A stretch of 38,702 nucleotides of DNA from a virus. Lineage: Duplodnaviria; Caudoviricetes. The notes beneath the pieces are model-generated. The model was not told where the DNA came from. It made no database searches and saw nothing but the letters and a program-made list of their open reading frames with translations. Positions 3,371 through 36,828 of the stretch are shown here, piece after piece. The stretch lies in the IMG/VR virus record IMGVR_UViG_3300036982_000387, positions 1 through 38,702 of that record; one strand, written 5' to 3'. The translations under genes were made by a program, and so were the position numbers. Every line of letters begins with the position of its first letter. Position 1 is the first letter of the stretch.

Positions 3371-4042
3371 ATGCTTGAAGAAATATTAAATAAACTGGAT
3401 TTTATCGGATCGCTTGATCTTGATGAAAAAGTGGTAGCAATTAACGCGATAAGAAAGCGCTTGCATGAGTTAAGCCCTTTTAATTCTTGCCCTGTAGATT
3501 TTGTTGAGTGGGTTAAGAATGAAAACGTACACGCTAACGACTACAACCCAAACAGCGTAGCCCCCCCAGAAATGAAGCTTTTGGAGCGATCTATTGAGGC
3601 AGACGGATACACGCAGCCAATTGTTACATGGCCAAACAATGGCTACGAAGTGGTTGACGGGTTCCACCGCCACAGAGTTGGCAAAGAATCGGAAATTGTC
3701 CAAAAAATGGTTATGGGTTATTTGCCTGTAGTTTCTTTGGCTGTTGATCGCCACGAAAGAAATGACCGTATGGCCGCCACAATTCGCCATAACCGCGCAA
3801 GAGGCAAACATAGTGTATCTGCTATGTCTGAGATTGTAGTCGAGCTGAAAAGGCGTTTTTGGAGCGATGAGCGAATTGCAAAAGAATTAGGAATGGAGCC
3901 TGATGAGGTTTTGCGGTTGCAGCAAGTTAAAGGCTTGGCGTTCGCGTTTAAAGATTCTGATTTTAGTGAGTCATGGGAGGCTGAATCTTTCGCTGATTTA
4001 GGTAAGGATGAATTTGAAGGGGAGCTGATTAATGAGAATTAA
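3371..4042 (+). CDS. ibrB: ParB/Srx-domain protein (IbrB/YbdM-like)
   Basis: ANDYNPNSVAPPEMKLLERSIEADGYTQPIV...VVDGFHR...RMAATIRHNRARGKH; RBS GGAG. Confidence 0.85.
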   Translation: MLEEILNKLDFIGSLDLDEKVVAINAIRKRLHELSPFNSCPVDFVEWVKNENVHANDYNPNSVAPPEMKLLERSIEADGYTQPIVTWPNNGYEVVDGFHRHRVGKESEIVQKMVMGYLPVVSLAVDRHERNDRMAATIRHNRARGKHSVSAMSEIVVELKRRFWSDERIAKELGMEPDEVLRLQQVKGLAFAFKDSDFSESWEAESFADLGKDEFEGELINEN

Positions 4043-4418
4043 AAGAATTTACCACCACTTTTCAAAATGCGAAGAATTCAAAAGCGTTATGTGGCAGTCA
4101 TCACTTGGATTCGATAAGAAAGAAAAGGCTAAGCAGTGCTCTGAGTTTATGTCAGATACAGATTTATTTAGCGCTGCAATGATGCTGGTTATTGCTGAGT
4201 GGCCGTTGTCATGCGAGGCAAACTTTACAAATACAGGGATTAATCAGGTTGCTTGGCTTGGTCAAGCTGCTGCTGCAATAGCTATTGAATGCCCCGAAGA
4301 CATAACAAAAGAGGCTTGGGGTTTGCTGGGTTCAGATAAGCAAGAGCTGGCAAACAATGCGGCAAAAATGCACATTAAAAAATGGAAGCTTGCGCATTTG
4401 GAGAGTTTTTATGCCTAA
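4032..4418 (+). CDS. hypothetical protein within the ibr module
   Basis: 128-aa ORF overlapping both neighbours; EWPLSCEANFT...AWLGQAA motif. Confidence 0.75.
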   Translation: MRIKRIYHHFSKCEEFKSVMWQSSLGFDKKEKAKQCSEFMSDTDLFSAAMMLVIAEWPLSCEANFTNTGINQVAWLGQAAAAIAIECPEDITKEAWGLLGSDKQELANNAAKMHIKKWKLAHLESFYA

Positions 4419-5619
4419 GAAATACATTGGTGTTGACGTTTTAACGTCCGCAAAAGAACGAATAGCCTACACATTTGATAATTTTGAGCGCGTATGTGTG
4501 TCGTTTTCAGGCGGTAAAGATTCGGCGGTAATGCTTCACTTGGTTATGGATGAGGCTATCAAGCGTGGTGTTACCGTGGGGGTGCTGTTTATCGACTGGG
4601 AATGCCAGATGAAAATGACAATCTCGTTTTGTGAACAGATGTTTGAAAAGTACGCGGGAAACATTGATCCGTTTTGGGTATCGCTTCCAATGAAAACATG
4701 GAATGCAACAAGCCAGTTCGAGCCGGAGTGGACAGCTTGGGATAAAGACAAAAAAGATTTATGGGTTCGCCAGCCAAGCAAGCATTCAATAACTGATTAT
4801 GATTTTTTTGACTTCTGGCACTATGGAATGCCATTTGAAGAGTTTGTGCCATGCTTTGCAAAGTGGTACGCACAAGGAAAATCATGCGCTCAATTTGTTG
4901 GAATCCGTGCGGATGAGTCATTAAACCGATTTAGAACAATTTCCCGCGATAAGCCTATGTTTGACAGTAAGCCATGGACGACTAACGTTATCGAAAATTC
5001 ATGGAACGTTTACCCAATTTACGACTGGAAGACAAAAGACATTTGGGTTTACTTGGGTAAGTTTGAAAAAGAATATAACAAGCTTTATGACTTCATGATG
5101 CAGGCCGGAATGAAGCTATCACAAATGCGAATCTGTGAGCCGTTCGGTGATGAGGCTAGAAAGGGTCTATGGCTCTATCAAGTGTGTGAGCCAGAGATGT
5201 GGGGCAAGCTAGCTTTGCGTGTCGCTGGCGCTAATACTGGTGCCTTATACGCAACCGAGAAAGGTGCTGTCATGGGCAATCACTCTATAGCCTTGCCAGC
5301 CAATCACACTTACGAATCTTTTAGTATGCACCTGCTAGAAACAATGCCAAGCCGAACAGCGGAGCACTACAAAAACAAATTGTTTGTGTACTTGAATTGG
5401 TGGGCTAAGCGTGGCTACGAAAACGGAATACCGGACAAGGTTGAGGTTAAGCTAGAAAACAATGGCAAGGTTCCATCGTGGAGAAAAGTTTGTAAAACAA
5501 TTCTTAAAAATGACTTCTGGTGCAAAGGTCTTGGGTTTAGCCCGACAAAAAGCTCAGCTTATGAAAAGTACATGAAGCAAAAGGCAGAAAAGCGCAAAGA
5601 GACAGGCGTAATGGCTTAA
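4411..5619 (+). CDS. ibrA: PAPS-reductase-family protein (IbrA/YbdN-like, DUF3440)
   Basis: PP-loop VSFSGGKDS, VGIRADESLNR, YPIYDWKTKDIW, MRICEPFG and PSWRKVCKTILKNDFWCKGLGF motifs. Confidence 0.85.
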   Translation: MPKKYIGVDVLTSAKERIAYTFDNFERVCVSFSGGKDSAVMLHLVMDEAIKRGVTVGVLFIDWECQMKMTISFCEQMFEKYAGNIDPFWVSLPMKTWNATSQFEPEWTAWDKDKKDLWVRQPSKHSITDYDFFDFWHYGMPFEEFVPCFAKWYAQGKSCAQFVGIRADESLNRFRTISRDKPMFDSKPWTTNVIENSWNVYPIYDWKTKDIWVYLGKFEKEYNKLYDFMMQAGMKLSQMRICEPFGDEARKGLWLYQVCEPEMWGKLALRVAGANTGALYATEKGAVMGNHSIALPANHTYESFSMHLLETMPSRTAEHYKNKLFVYLNWWAKRGYENGIPDKVEVKLENNGKVPSWRKVCKTILKNDFWCKGLGFSPTKSSAYEKYMKQKAEKRKETGVMA

Positions 5620-30542: not shown

Positions 30543-30840
30543 AGTTCATACTCTTAGCAAGCGCGAACAATATTTTTTCAATGTTATCGTGCTTGTGCTT
30601 ATCCCAAAAAGCATCATCTGAAAATTTAGCTAGAATAATCCTAGTAATAGGCTCTTGCGCTTCAGTGCCAACCACTGCCAACAAAACCCCCTCTAAAATT
30701 ATCAACTTGTCAGTATCGCTAAACGCCGCTTTAGATGCTGCAGTTTTTTGCGATTGCTTAAAATTACGCACCTTGGCGCGCAGGTTCATGTTCTGGTTTT
30801 TGAGTTTGGTTAATTCTTCTTCGCGTATTTCAATTTTCAT
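30541..30840 (-). CDS. hypothetical protein
   Basis: ORF with RBS GAGG before ATG 30840. Confidence 0.65.
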   Translation of the reverse strand: MKIEIREEELTKLKNQNMNLRAKVRNFKQSQKTAASKAAFSDTDKLIILEGVLLAVVGTEAQEPITRIILAKFSDDAFWDKHKHDNIEKILFALAKSMN

Positions 30841-31081
30841 TATTTGTCCTCTTAAGTTTAGCATCTAGCTTTTTAGTGTTTGCGCCATTTTGGCCTCCAC
30901 GTTTTACCGCTTCGGCCTTGGCGTTGATGGTTTGAAACTCGGCAGTTTCACCGATTGCGCACTGTTTAATCTTGCCACCATTCGCTTTAAACCGTTCAAC
31001 GTCTTTAGCTAGTTGATCGTGCAAGCTAACGTTAATGCGGCTGAATACTATGTGTTTTGGTGGTAGCTCATCTGCTAGCAT
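30830..31081 (-). CDS. hypothetical protein
   Basis: RBS GAGGTG; VERFKANGGKIKQC motif. Confidence 0.65.
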   Translation of the reverse strand: MLADELPPKHIVFSRINVSLHDQLAKDVERFKANGGKIKQCAIGETAEFQTINAKAEAVKRGGQNGANTKKLDAKLKRTNNEN

Positions 31082-33291: not shown

Positions 33292-33462
33292 ATGAATCGC
33301 AAATGGGTAGGGCTAAACGAGTACACAGCTAAAAAAATGCAAGAAAAAATAGACGAGGCAAACGAGCAGCGCAAAGAGCTAGGCCGAAAGCCTATACGGG
33401 CTTGCGATTTTATGGCCGAGGCCGTTGACCGCGTAACAGTGGCGCAGTTAGTTAGGGTTTAA
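33292..33462 (+). CDS. small putative regulator (56 aa, RHH/Cro-position)
   Basis: Hand-translated MNRKWVGLNEYTAKKMQEKIDEANEQRKELGRKPIRACDFMAEAVDRVTVAQLVRV; RBS GAGGG; stop TAA lies within the first attC core. Confidence 0.65.
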   Translation: MNRKWVGLNEYTAKKMQEKIDEANEQRKELGRKPIRACDFMAEAVDRVTVAQLVRV

Positions 33463-33536
33463 CGCAAAGGTAAACGGCGCACGGAACGTGCGTCCAGTGG
33501 AGCGAAGCGGAGCGATGTTTGACCGCCTTGTTATGA
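33457..33536 (-). repeat. attC site (80 bp)
   Basis: Minus strand: TCATAAC-AAGGC-GGTCAAAC...GTTTACC-TTTGC-GTTAAAC. Confidence 0.9.
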
Positions 33537-33557
33537 CCAACATTTTGCAGGTGATTT

Positions 33558-33812
33558 ATGGACGGCTTTAAGATTTTAGAAATTGCACACAGAACCGCGT
33601 GGAAATATAAAAAGAGTAGTGACCCGCACCACTCGGACACATACACTTTTAACGAGCACACACTTATTGATTTTGTGCAGAAAGTTCAGACGCATTTAAT
33701 ATTAGATGAGAGAAATCGTTGCGCAGAACTAGCAAAAGATTTAGATAATGACGAAAACACATATGACTACAGGGCGGCAGCTAGATATATTGCTGAGCGC
33801 ATAGAGTCATAA
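33558..33812 (+). CDS. cassette hypothetical protein (84 aa)
   Basis: RBS AGGTGA; DERNRCAELA...AARYIAERI phage motif; TAA within the core site. Confidence 0.75.
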   Translation: MDGFKILEIAHRTAWKYKKSSDPHHSDTYTFNEHTLIDFVQKVQTHLILDERNRCAELAKDLDNDENTYDYRAAARYIAERIES

Positions 33813-33893
33813 CGCAGAGCGCAGCCGCGCGCATTTAATCAGTGATCATTTAGCCGATTTATGACGCGTCCGAGTTGCAGCGTATTGTTATTT
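33807..33893 (-). repeat. attC site (87 bp)
   Basis: Minus strand: AAATAAC-AATAC-GCTGCAAC...GCTGCGC-TCTGC-GTTATGA; slightly degenerate. Confidence 0.8.
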
Positions 33894-33937
33894 TTTGCTA
33901 CAGAGTGAATTATTTTCTATTTTGTAGTTTAAAAAGC

Positions 33938-33966
33938 TTTACATTCAATGTAATGTGTTTTAATAT
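33938..33966 (+). promoter_or_regulatory. cassette-internal promoter with palindromic operator
   Basis: TTTACA, 17 bp, TAATAT; TTACATT-C-AATGTAA (33939-33953) overlaps the -35. Confidence 0.65.
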
Positions 33967-34018
33967 ACATTCACTGACTAAGGAAATGGCTCCGAGGCAG
34001 AAACCAAGGTGAATAAAA

Positions 34019-34294
34019 ATGGCAAGATCAACAGTTAAAACAGTTCAAATTAAAGGCGTGGATTACATAGCTTCAATTGCTTCAAACGATGATAATAATT
34101 TGCGTAGCGCGTACTTGACACCGAAATTTGTTGTGGATGCTAACTTAGACGCTGAACATCCTGACTTTTGGAATCACATAAATTCAGAGATTGATGTCTG
34201 CCGTTTGGTTGACGCAACAGATGATGAAATTTTGGCGATGATTGATGCAAAAATTGAATTGATGCAATCAGACAGTCTTGAGAGCTTTTTCTAA
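34019..34294 (+). CDS. cassette hypothetical acidic protein (91 aa)
   Basis: RBS AGGTGA; TAATG-coupled to the next gene. Confidence 0.75.
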   Translation: MARSTVKTVQIKGVDYIASIASNDDNNLRSAYLTPKFVVDANLDAEHPDFWNHINSEIDVCRLVDATDDEILAMIDAKIELMQSDSLESFF

Positions 34295-34482
34295 TGAAAA
34301 CCGAGGCGCAGGCGAAAGCCTGCACTCTTTTAGAGTTTATTGATTTACATTTTGAAGGCAACCAAAGCGCGTTTGGCCGCGCTCAAGACGTTTCCCGCCA
34401 GCAAGTGCGCGAATGGGTTGATAAAGATTTTATTGTAGTAAATGGGAGGCTATACAGCCCACGGCGCGAACTGAAAACATAA
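34294..34482 (+). CDS. cassette small HTH (Cro-like) protein
   Basis: FEGNQSAFGRAQDVSRQQVREWV helix-turn-helix; TAA within the core site. Confidence 0.75.
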   Translation: MKTEAQAKACTLLEFIDLHFEGNQSAFGRAQDVSRQQVREWVDKDFIVVNGRLYSPRRELKT

Positions 34483-34560
34483 CGCCAAGTTCAGCCCGTG
34501 GCTGGGAGTAAGTAAATAATGGCCGATTCTAGCACCATCGGCTGAAACTTTTTGTTATGT
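34477..34560 (-). repeat. attC site (84 bp)
   Basis: Minus strand: ACATAAC-AAAAA-GTTTCAGC...GCTGAAC-TTGGC-GTTATGT. Confidence 0.9.
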
Positions 34561-34586
34561 GCAGGCTTGCTTGCGAGGATTTATAA

Positions 34587-34766
34587 ATGGAAGAAACAAA
34601 ATTAGAAAGTGCGGCATTCTTGATGGTTGATGCTTACCACAAAAATACAAAAATGATTGACGCATTGAACTATGTTGCAAGCAAAGAAACATGCAAAGGC
34701 GTTCCGTATAATGTTTTACAGGGTATGTGGATTGTTTTGGACGCTTACCATGAATCAAAAAAATAA
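34587..34766 (+). CDS. cassette hypothetical protein (59 aa)
   Basis: Hand-translated MEETKLESAAFLMVDAYHK...; RBS GAGG. Confidence 0.7.
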   Translation: MEETKLESAAFLMVDAYHKNTKMIDALNYVASKETCKGVPYNVLQGMWIVLDAYHESKK

Positions 34767-34783
34767 GCCGTTTTGACTGATAC

Positions 34784-34869
34784 ACATAACGCCAATATAA
34801 CTGGTGCGCTTTTCACAAGTGATTAGTGCACCTAACTTAAACCGCATCCAGTTCATATTCTTGTTATGT
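34784..34869 (-). repeat. attC site (86 bp)
   Basis: Minus strand: ACATAAC-AAGAA-TATGAACT-GGATGCG...CGCACC-AGTTATA-TTGGC-GTTATGT; two extrahelical bases. Confidence 0.9.
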
Positions 34870-34893
34870 GCTGGAACTTGAGATGATTTAGCT

Positions 34894-35097
34894 ATGGAAG
34901 AATTAATAACAGAAGTAAGAGCGTGGCTTAGGGCGCACGGCGATTACGATATAAAAATAAGTTTGCATGGTTTATACGGTGTTATTGAGGTTCGCGGTTT
35001 TAAATTGAATAGAGAGATTGCTTTTAGTAAGGGGCAGGATTTTAACAAGCACATAAAAATAGTGCTCGGAATTTTGATAGCCGATAGCACCACATAA
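34894..35097 (+). CDS. cassette hypothetical protein (67 aa)
   Basis: Fills the cassette; TAA within the core site. Confidence 0.7.
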   Translation: MEELITEVRAWLRAHGDYDIKISLHGLYGVIEVRGFKLNREIAFSKGQDFNKHIKIVLGILIADSTT

Positions 35098-35176
35098 CGC
35101 CAAGTTCAGCCCGTGGCGGGGAGTAAGAATTTAATTAGCCGTTGGTGCGACCATCGGCTGCAACTTTTTGTTATGT
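35092..35176 (-). repeat. attC site (85 bp)
   Basis: Minus strand: ACATAAC-AAAAA-GTTGCAGC...GCTGAAC-TTGGC-GTTATGT; close paralogue of 34477-34560. Confidence 0.9.
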
Positions 35177-35202
35177 GCAAGTTTTCTTGCGAGGATATTT
35201 AA

Positions 35203-35424
35203 ATGGGTAAAGTTATTCCGTTCAAAGGGAAAACAATGGTGGATATACCGCCTAGCCAAATTTTAGAAGCTGCGCCAAAAGACCTTTTATATGTTTTGGT
35301 GATTGGCATTGATAAAGATGGCGAGCGGTATTATGCCAGTTCTGAATCAGACTTAGGCCGCGCATTTTACGAGATGGAAAAGATGAAGTTGTTTGCGCTA
35401 GATGGCGGTGACGGCAACACATAA
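35203..35424 (+). CDS. cassette hypothetical protein (73 aa)
   Basis: RBS GAGG; KVIPF...ILEAA...VLVIGIDKDGERYYASS phage-type motif; TAA within the core site. Confidence 0.75.
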   Translation: MGKVIPFKGKTMVDIPPSQILEAAPKDLLYVLVIGIDKDGERYYASSESDLGRAFYEMEKMKLFALDGGDGNT

Positions 35425-35502
35425 CGCCGAGATTTGCGGCGGCTGGGAGTAATTAAACTGGGCGGCAATGTAGATTCCGTCCGCAAGATTGACTTGTTAC
35501 AT
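35419..35502 (-). repeat. attC site (84 bp)
   Basis: Minus strand: ATGTAAC-AAGTC-AATCTTGC-GGACGG...CCGCC-GCAAATC-TCGGC-GTTATGT. Confidence 0.9.
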
Positions 35503-35524
35503 TTACAAAACATGAGGATTTAAG

Positions 35525-35665
35525 ATGATTGGATTTACCCAGATTTATATTGACGATGATGGCTACCCAAGCGAAAGAGAAACGCAGTGGGCTGCAAGTG
35601 CGTTTGTGTTTCTGTTTTGGACTATTTACGTTGGCAAGGTGCGCCATGTGGGTGACATAAAATGA
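35525..35665 (+). CDS. cassette hypothetical protein (46 aa)
   Basis: Hand-translated MIGFTQIYIDDDGYPSERETQW...; RBS GAGG; ATGA overlap with the next gene. Confidence 0.6.
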   Translation: MIGFTQIYIDDDGYPSERETQWAASAFVFLFWTIYVGKVRHVGDIK

Positions 35666-35853
35666 CCGAGAAAGTTGTTTATTTAGCCTACTCACACAAA
35701 GAAGCCGCAACAGAATCAACTACTTTTCTTGCTTGTGCAAACTGCAAAAACAAGACGTTCTCAATAGTGTATGAGAACGAAAGCGAAATACCGCGAATGA
35801 AATGCGGTGCGTGTGGCTGGAATGGTGGGCGGATAGGTTTTCTTGATGAGTGA
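35662..35853 (+). CDS. cassette Zn-ribbon protein (63 aa)
   Basis: CANC...CGAC; TGA abuts the core site. Confidence 0.7.
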   Translation: MTEKVVYLAYSHKEAATESTTFLACANCKNKTFSIVYENESEIPRMKCGACGWNGGRIGFLDE

Positions 35854-35937
35854 ATGTAACGCCCGAATAACGGGCGCGCATACGGTGCCAGTAAAAACGC
35901 ATATTTCTACCGCGTCCCGTTCATTTGCTGGTTACAT
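35854..35937 (-). repeat. attC site (84 bp)
   Basis: Minus strand: ATGTAAC-CAGCA-AATGAACG-GGACGCG...CGCGCC-CGTTATT-CGGGC-GTTACAT. Confidence 0.9.
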
Positions 35938-35964
35938 TGTTTTTGCACTTTGTGAGGTTTTACG

Positions 35965-36660
35965 ATGATAAAAATGTTGAATATGGATTGCATGGAGTAC
36001 ATGCGAACCGTGCCAGACAAGTATTTTGATTTGGCTGTTGTTGATCCGCAGTATGGTCTTGGTGAGCATGGCGGAAAAAATAGAAGCAAAGCCGTTAGGC
36101 AAAAAAATGGCGGATCTCTAATGTGTGTTGATGGCGGATATTCAAAAAAGAATTGGGATGATGAGCCGCCTAAGCCAGAATATTTTGAAGAGCTATTACG
36201 AGTTTCTAAAAACCAAATAATTTGGGGTGCTAATTATATGCCTGCCAAATTAACGGGAGGCGCAATTGTTTGGGATAAGATTAATGATGGCTCAGATCAA
36301 AGCGGCGCAGAGATTGCTTTCTGCAGTTTAAACAATAGGGTTGATGTTGTTAGATACATGTGGCGCGGGATGATGCAGGGCGAAGGAATTGGGAGCGTTA
36401 AGCAGCAAGGCAACAAAGCGCTTAACGAGAAAAGAATTCACCCAACGCAAAAGCCGGTAAAGTTATACCAGTGGCTCTTGCAAAACTACGCTAAGCCAGA
36501 GTTTAAGATTTTAGACACACACCTTGGTAGCGGTTCTAGCGCGATTGCAGCGCATTACTTTGGTGTTGCTGAGTTTGTGGGTACTGAGCTAGATGAGGAT
36601 TACTACAAAGCTTGCTGTGAACGGTTTGAGAATGCCACGGCACAAGAAGCACTTTTTTAA
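35965..36660 (+). CDS. cassette DNA methyltransferase (N6-adenine/N4-cytosine, beta class)
   Basis: MDCMEYM...FDLAVVDPQYG, IHPTQKPVKLY, ILDTHLGSGS, GTELDEDY. Confidence 0.9.
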   Translation: MIKMLNMDCMEYMRTVPDKYFDLAVVDPQYGLGEHGGKNRSKAVRQKNGGSLMCVDGGYSKKNWDDEPPKPEYFEELLRVSKNQIIWGANYMPAKLTGGAIVWDKINDGSDQSGAEIAFCSLNNRVDVVRYMWRGMMQGEGIGSVKQQGNKALNEKRIHPTQKPVKLYQWLLQNYAKPEFKILDTHLGSGSSAIAAHYFGVAEFVGTELDEDYYKACCERFENATAQEALF

Positions 36661-36663
36661 ACA

Positions 36664-36700
36664 ATGTAACAGTTTATTCAAAGGGTCGACCCGTAAAACT
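36664..36700 (-). other. attI-like recombination site
   Basis: Minus strand AGTTTTACGGGTCGACCCTTTGAATAAACTG|TTACAT: core matches the end of the first cassette, with no attC hairpin partner. Confidence 0.6.
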
Positions 36701-36828
36701 CCGACATTTAGACGACATGATGCATTGATTTTATTGAAGTTTTTTAGCGTGTTTGGAGTTTTTCTTGGCAGGCCGCAATTCCACAAAAACCGCACTGAAA
36801 AAGTGCAAATGATTTGATATGGTGCAAT

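Follow-up and report, generated by a model that had tools for sequence, protein, structure and literature searches.

How does a phage that has no recombinase gene of its own come to carry an array of integron cassettes that are gained and lost at their recombination sites? This question is raised by a locus in IMGVR_UViG_3300036982_000387, a whole viral record (linear, 38,702 nt, 86% complete) that is called the window throughout this report. Based on its gene families, which include terminase, portal, head, tail, and lysis genes, the record represents a lambdoid siphovirus. The locus consists of seven attC sites that delimit seven gene cassettes, followed by an attI-type docking site (Table 1). 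It combines attC anatomy, inverted cassettes, a docking site that matches host attI, turnover at the cassette cores, and the lack of a recombinase of its own. We consider it probable that the array is an integron platform in mirror image that lacks an integrase and is served in trans by the IntI of the bacterial host.

Anatomy of the attC sites

An earlier reading of this DNA, made from the sequence only, had described seven imperfect palindromes of 80–87 bp with attC architecture, and all seven were recovered at the same starts. Each conforms to the consensus R″(RYYYAAC), a 5-nt spacer, an 8-nt L″, a loop, a 7-nt L′, a 5-nt spacer, and R′(GTTRRRY), with length limits of 55–141 bp. A purpose-written scanner (score of at least 16) returned exactly these seven sites in the 38.7-kb window, and none in any of 20 resampled sequences with equal dinucleotide make-up. 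A covariance model for attC, which the sequence-only reading had proposed as a check, matched all seven on the minus strand. Six of these matches scored 32–48 bits (E ≤ 1.3e-5), and the sole other match in the window, apart from the weak attC2, scored 12 bits. Its training set comprised 49 attC sites taken from chromosomal loci of bacteria. Because these had been chosen with the same author's scanner, the model is a partly independent test only.

Folding agrees with this assignment. Under constrained folding, the L-box positions are paired at 7 of 7 in six sites and at 6 of 7 in the site at 33807, with a bulge in L″ and, as had been noted before, a second bulged base, a T located about 6 bp further in. 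In the consulted part of PMC5027507 (Nivina et al. 2016), the rule for attC bulges is that extrahelical bases occupy one arm, the first and last lying about 6 bp apart. The first extrahelical base on the bottom strand is G in two sites, C in four, and A in one. Folded freely, two of the seven plus strands clearly beat shuffled sequences (z scores of −4.3 and −2.8), and the remaining five range from −0.3 to −2.1. L-box pairing and bulges are retained over 87 attC clusters that have little sequence identity.

Table 1. Positions of the attC sites, cassettes, and adjoining features of the array. ORF, open reading frame; HTH, helix-turn-helix.
Feature	Positions	Strand	Description
56-aa ORF	33292..33462	+	Likely regulator, first of the rightward operon; terminates on the TAA within the first attC core
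attC1	33457..33536	-	80 bp; 48 bits in covariance model
Cassette 1	33463..33812	+	350 bp; 84-aa ORF 33558-33812 terminating in core TAA
attC2	33807..33893	-	87 bp; weakest covariance-model score, 15 bits, E 0.15
Cassette 2	33813..34482	+	670 bp; 91-aa ORF 34019-34294; 62-aa HTH-like ORF 34294-34482 (phrog_10103)
attC3	34477..34560	-	84 bp; scanner and covariance model
Cassette 3	34483..34789	+	307 bp; 59-aa ORF 34587-34766; no family match
attC4	34784..34869	-	86 bp; scanner and covariance model
Cassette 4	34790..35097	+	308 bp; 67-aa ORF 34894-35097 terminating in core TAA
attC5	35092..35176	-	85 bp; same type as attC3; scanner and covariance model
Cassette 5	35098..35424	+	327 bp; 73-aa ORF 35203-35424 (phrog_11040)
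attC6	35419..35502	-	84 bp; scanner and covariance model
Cassette 6	35425..35859	+	435 bp; 46-aa ORF 35525-35665; 63-aa zinc-ribbon-like ORF 35662-35853 (below Pfam cut-off)
attC7	35854..35937	-	84 bp; scanner and covariance model
Cassette 7	35860..36669	+	810 bp; 231-aa DNA methyltransferase 35965-36660 (PF01555)
attI-type docking half-site	36664..36705	-	Crossover G at 36670; sequence match to host attI

Reversed polarity of the cassettes

On the plus strand it is the right arm that holds the bulged bases, as on the bottom strand of aadA7 (PMC9892861 supplement), and thus the plus strand is the bottom strand. All nine cassette ORFs are on this strand, which means that the cassettes are inverted. 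All nine also read towards attI, and the layout of a complete integron, with top-strand genes and the promoter Pc upstream of attI, is absent. The layout is its mirror image, with the genes running antisense to the top strand of attC and with a promoter-distal attI. We assign polarity in this way because of the side of the bulges, the position of attI, and the finding (below) that 17 of 33 module pairs keep the upstream attC and none keeps only the downstream one. Complementarity of the cassette ends was rejected as proof of polarity, given that it is compatible with a cut at either core.

Arrays were surveyed with patterns made from the attC types of the window, which gave 10 and 18 viral-contig stretches, 75 metagenome stretches, and 3 genome stretches. 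Polarity was scored per unit by the longest ORF with identical code for all sets, and the counts are raw and uncorrected. Inverted units make up 100 of 110 in viral contigs, 138 of 154 in metagenomes, and 7 of 7 in prophages. Canonical units make up 135 of 168 in host integrons and 13 of 14 in published phage arrays. On inspection, the exceptions (20 host units scored as inverted, and most of 20 units from phages or metagenomes scored as canonical) resemble shadow ORFs or bacterial contigs.

The docking site and its probable link to host IntI

The attI-like site that the sequence-only reading had suspected is borne out. The 13–15 nt before its crossover are identical to the attI adjoining intI in three loci (L025, L035, and L062). 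In a matrix made from 23 host attI sites, the window position 36670 ranks first among 1443 GTT positions with 20.4 bits, and the next position scores 6.2. Among 33 Cellvibrionaceae intI loci, 25 have an attI ending in CTG/TT (the slash marks the crossover), commonly TTGAATAAACTG/TT, and 18 of these 25 were also placed by complementarity to the first attC. The attI of a second clade ends in ACAAATG/TT. Of these two attI types in the family, the phage arrays match only the CTG/TT type. A first attI pattern, made from two phages, found no match in viral contigs and was discarded.

In 24 of 34 arrays with sufficient flank, the core of the best antisense site downstream is complementary to the last cassette, compared with one of 34 for the best site upstream. 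As in integrons, an attI stands at the head of the array, as far as a sequence match can tell. According to the consulted part of PMC2095811, IntI is specific for its cognate attI and tolerant of attC, and this specificity means that the window attI points to an IntI of the L025/L035 type. The attC type of the window also occurs in two Cellvibrio/Cellvibrionaceae assemblies (G012 and G013; loci L024–L027), in a prophage-like context, and each of these encodes two IntI proteins above the TIGR02249 cut-off. One such IntI is matched at E ≤ 1e-60 in 153 of 201 Cellvibrionaceae genomes. In most integrons IntI is regulated by the SOS response, as stated in the part of PMC8946536 that was consulted.

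Traffic between host and phage is visible in three places. A half of attC1 on the R″ side (42–44 nt) is 93–98% identical to stretches of Cellvibrionaceae chromosomes, several of them in integron arrays. Host-type attC bodies of 133–134 nt, 76–86% identical to L153, are present in phage-type arrays (L010, L015, L091, L098, L110, and L111). A short contig (L185) carries one canonical and one inverted cassette adjacent to each other. In addition, a P2-like prophage (L020, 2725–20079) has a four-site inverted array with an attI, and therefore the system spans unrelated phage types. This prophage adjoins the same chromosomal genes as an array-less prophage in L174.

Cassette turnover at the cores

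The sequence-only reading had proposed a plug-and-play variable locus that could be checked by comparing relatives, and the comparison agrees with it. The flanks are conserved, the cassette sets differ at the same locus, and the breakpoints fall at the cores; gene content is not invariant, nor do the breaks lie only elsewhere. For example, in the relative G001 (locus L001) the exonuclease is 98% identical and the flank 84% identical to those of the window, and the same locus holds 10 other attC sites and other genes. GenBank phages include no relative of the array, with matches limited to the methylase and one attC, and a query with the NinB-like gene found one distant locus, without attC.

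Among 66 cassettes drawn from 11 viral loci, 63 have two ends that are perfectly complementary, compared with 10 of 66 composite sites in the arrays. Permutation gave a mean of 10 and a maximum of 22. For the window cassettes, R″ and R′ are complementary at 7 of 7 positions in six and at 6 of 7 in one. Such complementary ends are as insertion by an integrase leaves them. Moreover, in run X2, which comes from a separate study, one contig joins position 34479 to 36667 and omits cassettes 3–7, with only TAAC shared at the joint. The depth of this contig is 8.2, and that of other X2 contigs holding cassettes 3–7 is 3.5–4.9.

Exchange of attC hairpins

A second breakpoint, which was not expected, lies at R″. 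Modules running from G/TT to AA/C gave 41 pairs that are at least 80% identical, 33 of which have different downstream neighbors. The upstream attC body is kept (70% or more) in 17 of these 33 moved pairs and changed in 16, and in none is only the downstream body kept. For 15 swapped pairs that were inspected, identity stays close to background until the R″ core is reached and becomes high with the G of GTT; low body identity was the criterion by which these pairs were picked, a bias against partial sharing, and several come from a shared locus. Within-genome host duplicates retain their attC, but they are no real control for swapping because host sites are homogeneous.

The consulted part of PMC5027507 describes an IntI crossover at R″, that is, top-strand recombination of attC, as possible but 1000–10,000 times rarer, with strand choice tied to the bulges and to folding asymmetry. 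In contrast to this rarity, about half of the moved phage modules changed at R″. The energy of bottom-strand minus top-strand folding is −0.6 and −0.3 kcal/mol for phage sites versus −3.6 kcal/mol for host sites, and the first bulge is a G in 30% and 25% of phage sites versus 54% of host sites. The weaker asymmetry of the phage sites could reflect selection on the mRNA. If a gene were excised through the top strand and then inserted in the ordinary way, it would acquire the hairpin of its former neighbor.

Hairpin exchange also bears on the least improbable alternative, in which the attC sites are relics of integrons that now act only as short linkers for homologous or microhomology recombination by phage proteins, and IntI has no present role. 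Changed attC bodies in 16 of the moved modules fit this idea, and recombination genes do flank the array, namely an exonuclease/annealing module, a gene for a protein (SSB) that binds single-stranded DNA, and NinB- and NinG-like genes. Furthermore, attC2 is a chimera whose left arm comes from a 66–70-nt attC type and whose remainder comes from an 87-nt type, joined at the shared 6-nt stem CGCGCG, and runs X2–X4 hold a 17-nt shorter form of it between the same genes. (An origin of attC2 by loss of an intervening cassette was considered and dropped, as the 66–70-nt type is native in relatives.) Relatives of cassette 2 exchange their first gene between conserved ends, and attC3 and attC5, which are of one type, share sequence up to the start codons of different genes. 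Nevertheless, this alternative is unlikely, because the X2 joint shares so little sequence, complementary ends are kept in nearly all cassettes, a host-type attI is retained at the end of 24 of the 34 arrays, and L-box pairing and bulges persist across dissimilar attC clusters. The chimeric attC2 and its shorter form suggest that short-homology recombination acts as well.

Search for a recombinase

No PF00589 tyrosine recombinase gene was found in the window contig, which therefore lacks the intI of a complete integron. The relative G001 has a terminal repeat and is thus a closed circle; its sequence gave no PF00589 match, and no recombinase family was found among 41 of its ORFs scanned with Pfam. 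A tblastn search with host IntI over 102 loci (viral, prophage, and metagenome) gave no match at E 1e-4. These results, together with a docking site that equals host attI, make it quite improbable that the cassettes are moved by another recombinase, whether a helper phage, a prophage, or genome sequence absent from the record encodes it. Such an enzyme would have room in the part of the record that is missing, and a PF00589 gene is present in one of eight further array-bearing viral records (mostly fragments), where it looks like an ordinary integrase of a phage and lies at a distance of about 15 kb to the array. Two prophage loci also encode a phage integrase.

It is highly improbable that the hairpins are kept mainly as signals of the early transcript (for processing, attenuation, or translational coupling), an idea that arises because the bottom strand is the mRNA and that gains from the 192 of 314 modules with an open frame of at least 40 codons terminating on the core TAA, the 132 of 314 with an ATG inside R″, and the largely lost preference of phage sites for folding of the bottom strand, but that leaves end complementarity, attI, and core breakpoints unexplained and finds none of the seven sites listed as a plus-strand terminator.

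Proposed mechanism

Under the favored reading, in which host IntI serves the array, the IntI of a likely Cellvibrionaceae host, produced during infection or the SOS response, would insert and excise cassettes in trans by cutting the folded bottom strand (here the coding strand) at AA/C. New cassettes would be added at attI, the promoter-distal end, and would be expressed by read-through of the phage operon. The reversed polarity would separate the host and phage cassette pools, because a host cassette that enters a phage lands antisense and a phage cassette in a host array is silent. In line with such a separation, no protein family is common to the 155 host and 263 phage cassette proteins (0 of 352 families). 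A second crossover at the far core (G/TT of R″) would re-pair genes with new attC hairpins, either through top-strand recombination by IntI or through short-homology recombination by phage proteins. The enzyme is the least certain part of this scheme, and we judge the two candidates to be about equally probable.

A wider proposal is more tentative, and we regard it as possible rather than probable. It holds that there may be a mirror-image integron economy, in which hundreds of reversed cassettes are shared among unrelated Cellvibrionaceae phages through copies of the host attI, and that the reversal would shield phages from host cassettes, including those for defense. IntI with relaxed strand choice would cut both cores, such that hairpins move as units of their own and new cassettes arise.

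Several points weigh against a role for host IntI. End complementarity by itself is silent on which core is cut. The X2 joint is one contig from one of four runs, with 27 letters on its short side, and neither an excised circle nor a back-joint was seen in the run contigs, which drop rare forms. Homologous recombination seems to act too, as indicated by the chimera in attC2, by a first gene of cassette 2 that varies, and by divergence in the middle of the methylase cassette. The sites of the attI matrix were chosen partly by the same motif as was tested, and 10 of the 34 arrays have no matching attI. The host is assigned through shared sites and prophages, and the one close homologue of the exonuclease (49% identical, among 201 family genomes) is in a prophage in which the scanner detected no attC. 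The absence of protein families common to the two cassette pools stems from a small sample and different species. Finally, only 86% of the window genome is present.

Contents of the cassettes

The units had been estimated at about 310–810 bp with one or two ORFs each; as measured, they span 307–810 bp and hold one or two ORFs. Their description as loaded with phage-type genes holds to a modest degree, in that PHROGs families are matched by three of nine window ORFs and 20 of 106 ORFs of related arrays, versus 8 of 119 host ORFs. Cassette proteins are small (median 74 aa versus 112 aa in host arrays), and few of them fall into named families, which comprise DNA methyltransferases, HNH, a repressor, and proteins resembling Lar and RecX. 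In four of the seven window cassettes, an ORF ends on the TAA of the next core. Three genomes (G005, G006, and G009) carry more than one array each.

The N-terminal 38 aa encoded by cassette 1 are 74% identical to the product of a cassette gene in L009. At 33534–33572, an ATG within the R″ of attC1 starts a leader of 12 codons, which overlaps with the beginning of the cassette gene. Cassette 2 has its own promoter-like site (33938–33966), and its leader and HTH gene recur with other first genes in two bacterial-genome loci (L182 and L184). This module of promoter, variable gene, and conserved HTH gene differs in its first gene among the window (33885–34482), L182 (1115–1690), and L184 (1047–1700). 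The 91-aa ORF of cassette 2 has just five homologues, all unnamed.

The gene of cassette 5 is found, 96–99% identical, behind other attC bodies in L075, L114, L128, and L141. In L075 and L114, a decayed attC lies directly 5′ of this gene and attI, which possibly reflects an immobilized cassette. Cassette 7 recurs in L082 with the same attC, a diverged middle, and a different downstream neighbor. Its methylase plausibly protects against restriction, as argued in PMC9892861. A different kind of module is seen in L091 (289–928; also in L086, L127, and L017), which has an attC of the host type (133 nt) and two ORFs that overlap in antisense (163 aa on the top strand and 122 aa on the bottom strand). 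This module is possibly a host cassette captured in phage arrays. The 163-aa top-strand ORF has no match in Pfam or PHROGs and none in 251 family genomes.

Setting of the array

The window has a leftward recombination operon (exonuclease, Gp157, and SSB) and a rightward gene run that includes NinB- and NinG-like genes and, on the other side of the contig break, extends to Rha, HNH, and a replication initiator. The array extends from the divergent promoter region and the 56-aa ORF to the NinB-like gene, a position that makes its location in the early operon likely. The 56-aa ORF had no match in protein family searches; a homologue that is 82% identical is present in L132 and in L017, where it lies directly before the array.

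Elsewhere in the window (3371–5619), a ParB-like gene, a 128-aa ORF, and a PAPS-reductase/DUF3440 gene are consecutive and likely form a DNA-modification module; a ParB-methylase fusion occupies the comparable position in G001. An 83-aa ORF (30830–31081, minus strand) has a SutA RNA-polymerase-binding domain above the Pfam cut-off, is present in G001 too, and possibly imitates a transcription factor of the host. Neither the window nor G001 yielded an integrase or a CI-like repressor, and thus these phages may be strictly lytic.

Relation to known systems and implications

The early regions of lambdoid phages contain short shared linker or boundary sequences between genes that let small early genes reassort through sequence homology. 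Unlike these homology-based linkers, the boundaries in the window are attC sites that are defined by structure, are about 50% identical to one another, and end at an attI.

Although the sequence-only reading knew of no such phage system, attC clusters in phages are already published (Qi, Rajabal, Ghaly, Tetu, and Gillings 2023, PMC9892861). These are attC clusters that have no integron-integrase (CALINs), defined in the consulted part of PMC4889954 as at least two attC sites within 4 kb on one strand with no neighboring intI, and the window array has these properties. As far as the consulted part of PMC9892861 extends, phages hold 17 CALINs of at least two sites, with divergent sites in one phage. 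IntI1 recombined five of six tested phage attC sites (PMC9892861). The published CALINs resemble the window in having attC clusters without intI, IntI-type anatomy, and methyltransferase cargo, and the methylases of the window and of phage TJE1 are 46% identical. However, TJE1 and Shewanella phage M16-3 have the ordinary gene orientation, with no inverted unit among their 14, and the scanner detected none in P12002L. For M16-3, an attI that precedes the CALIN is reported in the consulted part of PMC9892861, which describes no inverted pool, turnover between relatives, or hairpin swapping such as the window loci show. We found no literature report of inverted phage arrays, a host-type attI, a borrowed integrase, or hairpin swapping beyond these CALINs, in a search whose scope stopped short of subscription journals and bioRxiv supplements.

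The sedentary chromosomal integrons of Cellvibrionaceae (L025, L035–L063, and L153–L172) share the attI sequence, attC anatomy, and some attC bodies with the window. In contrast to the phage arrays, they encode intI and have top-strand genes. Their cassettes are longer (median 508 bp versus 330 bp), and their attC sites are more variable in length (64–133 nt versus 80–87 nt, 10th to 90th percentile). Thus, the array in the window satisfies the definition of a CALIN and functions in the manner of an integron, but with no intI, reversed genes, and no Pc upstream of attI, it falls short of a complete one. What appears to be new relative to the published phage CALINs is an inverted pool with a host attI, and the exchange of hairpins.

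Integrons have been seen as bacterial tools and are reportedly also viewed of late as stores of phage defense genes (bioRxiv 10.1101/2024.07.02.601719). Phages appear to use the integron enzyme of their hosts for accessory genes of their own, in a polarity that, in the consulted part of PMC5027507, is said to be absent from natural arrays, cassettes facing the promoter never having been observed in mobile or chromosomal integrons. The system names a specific pair of enzyme and site, Cellvibrio IntI and the phage attI, and its large pool of small, uncharacterized early genes supplies candidates for counter-defense. It also bears on how cassettes acquire their attC sites, because gene modules and hairpins are seen here in new combinations with a sharp breakpoint.

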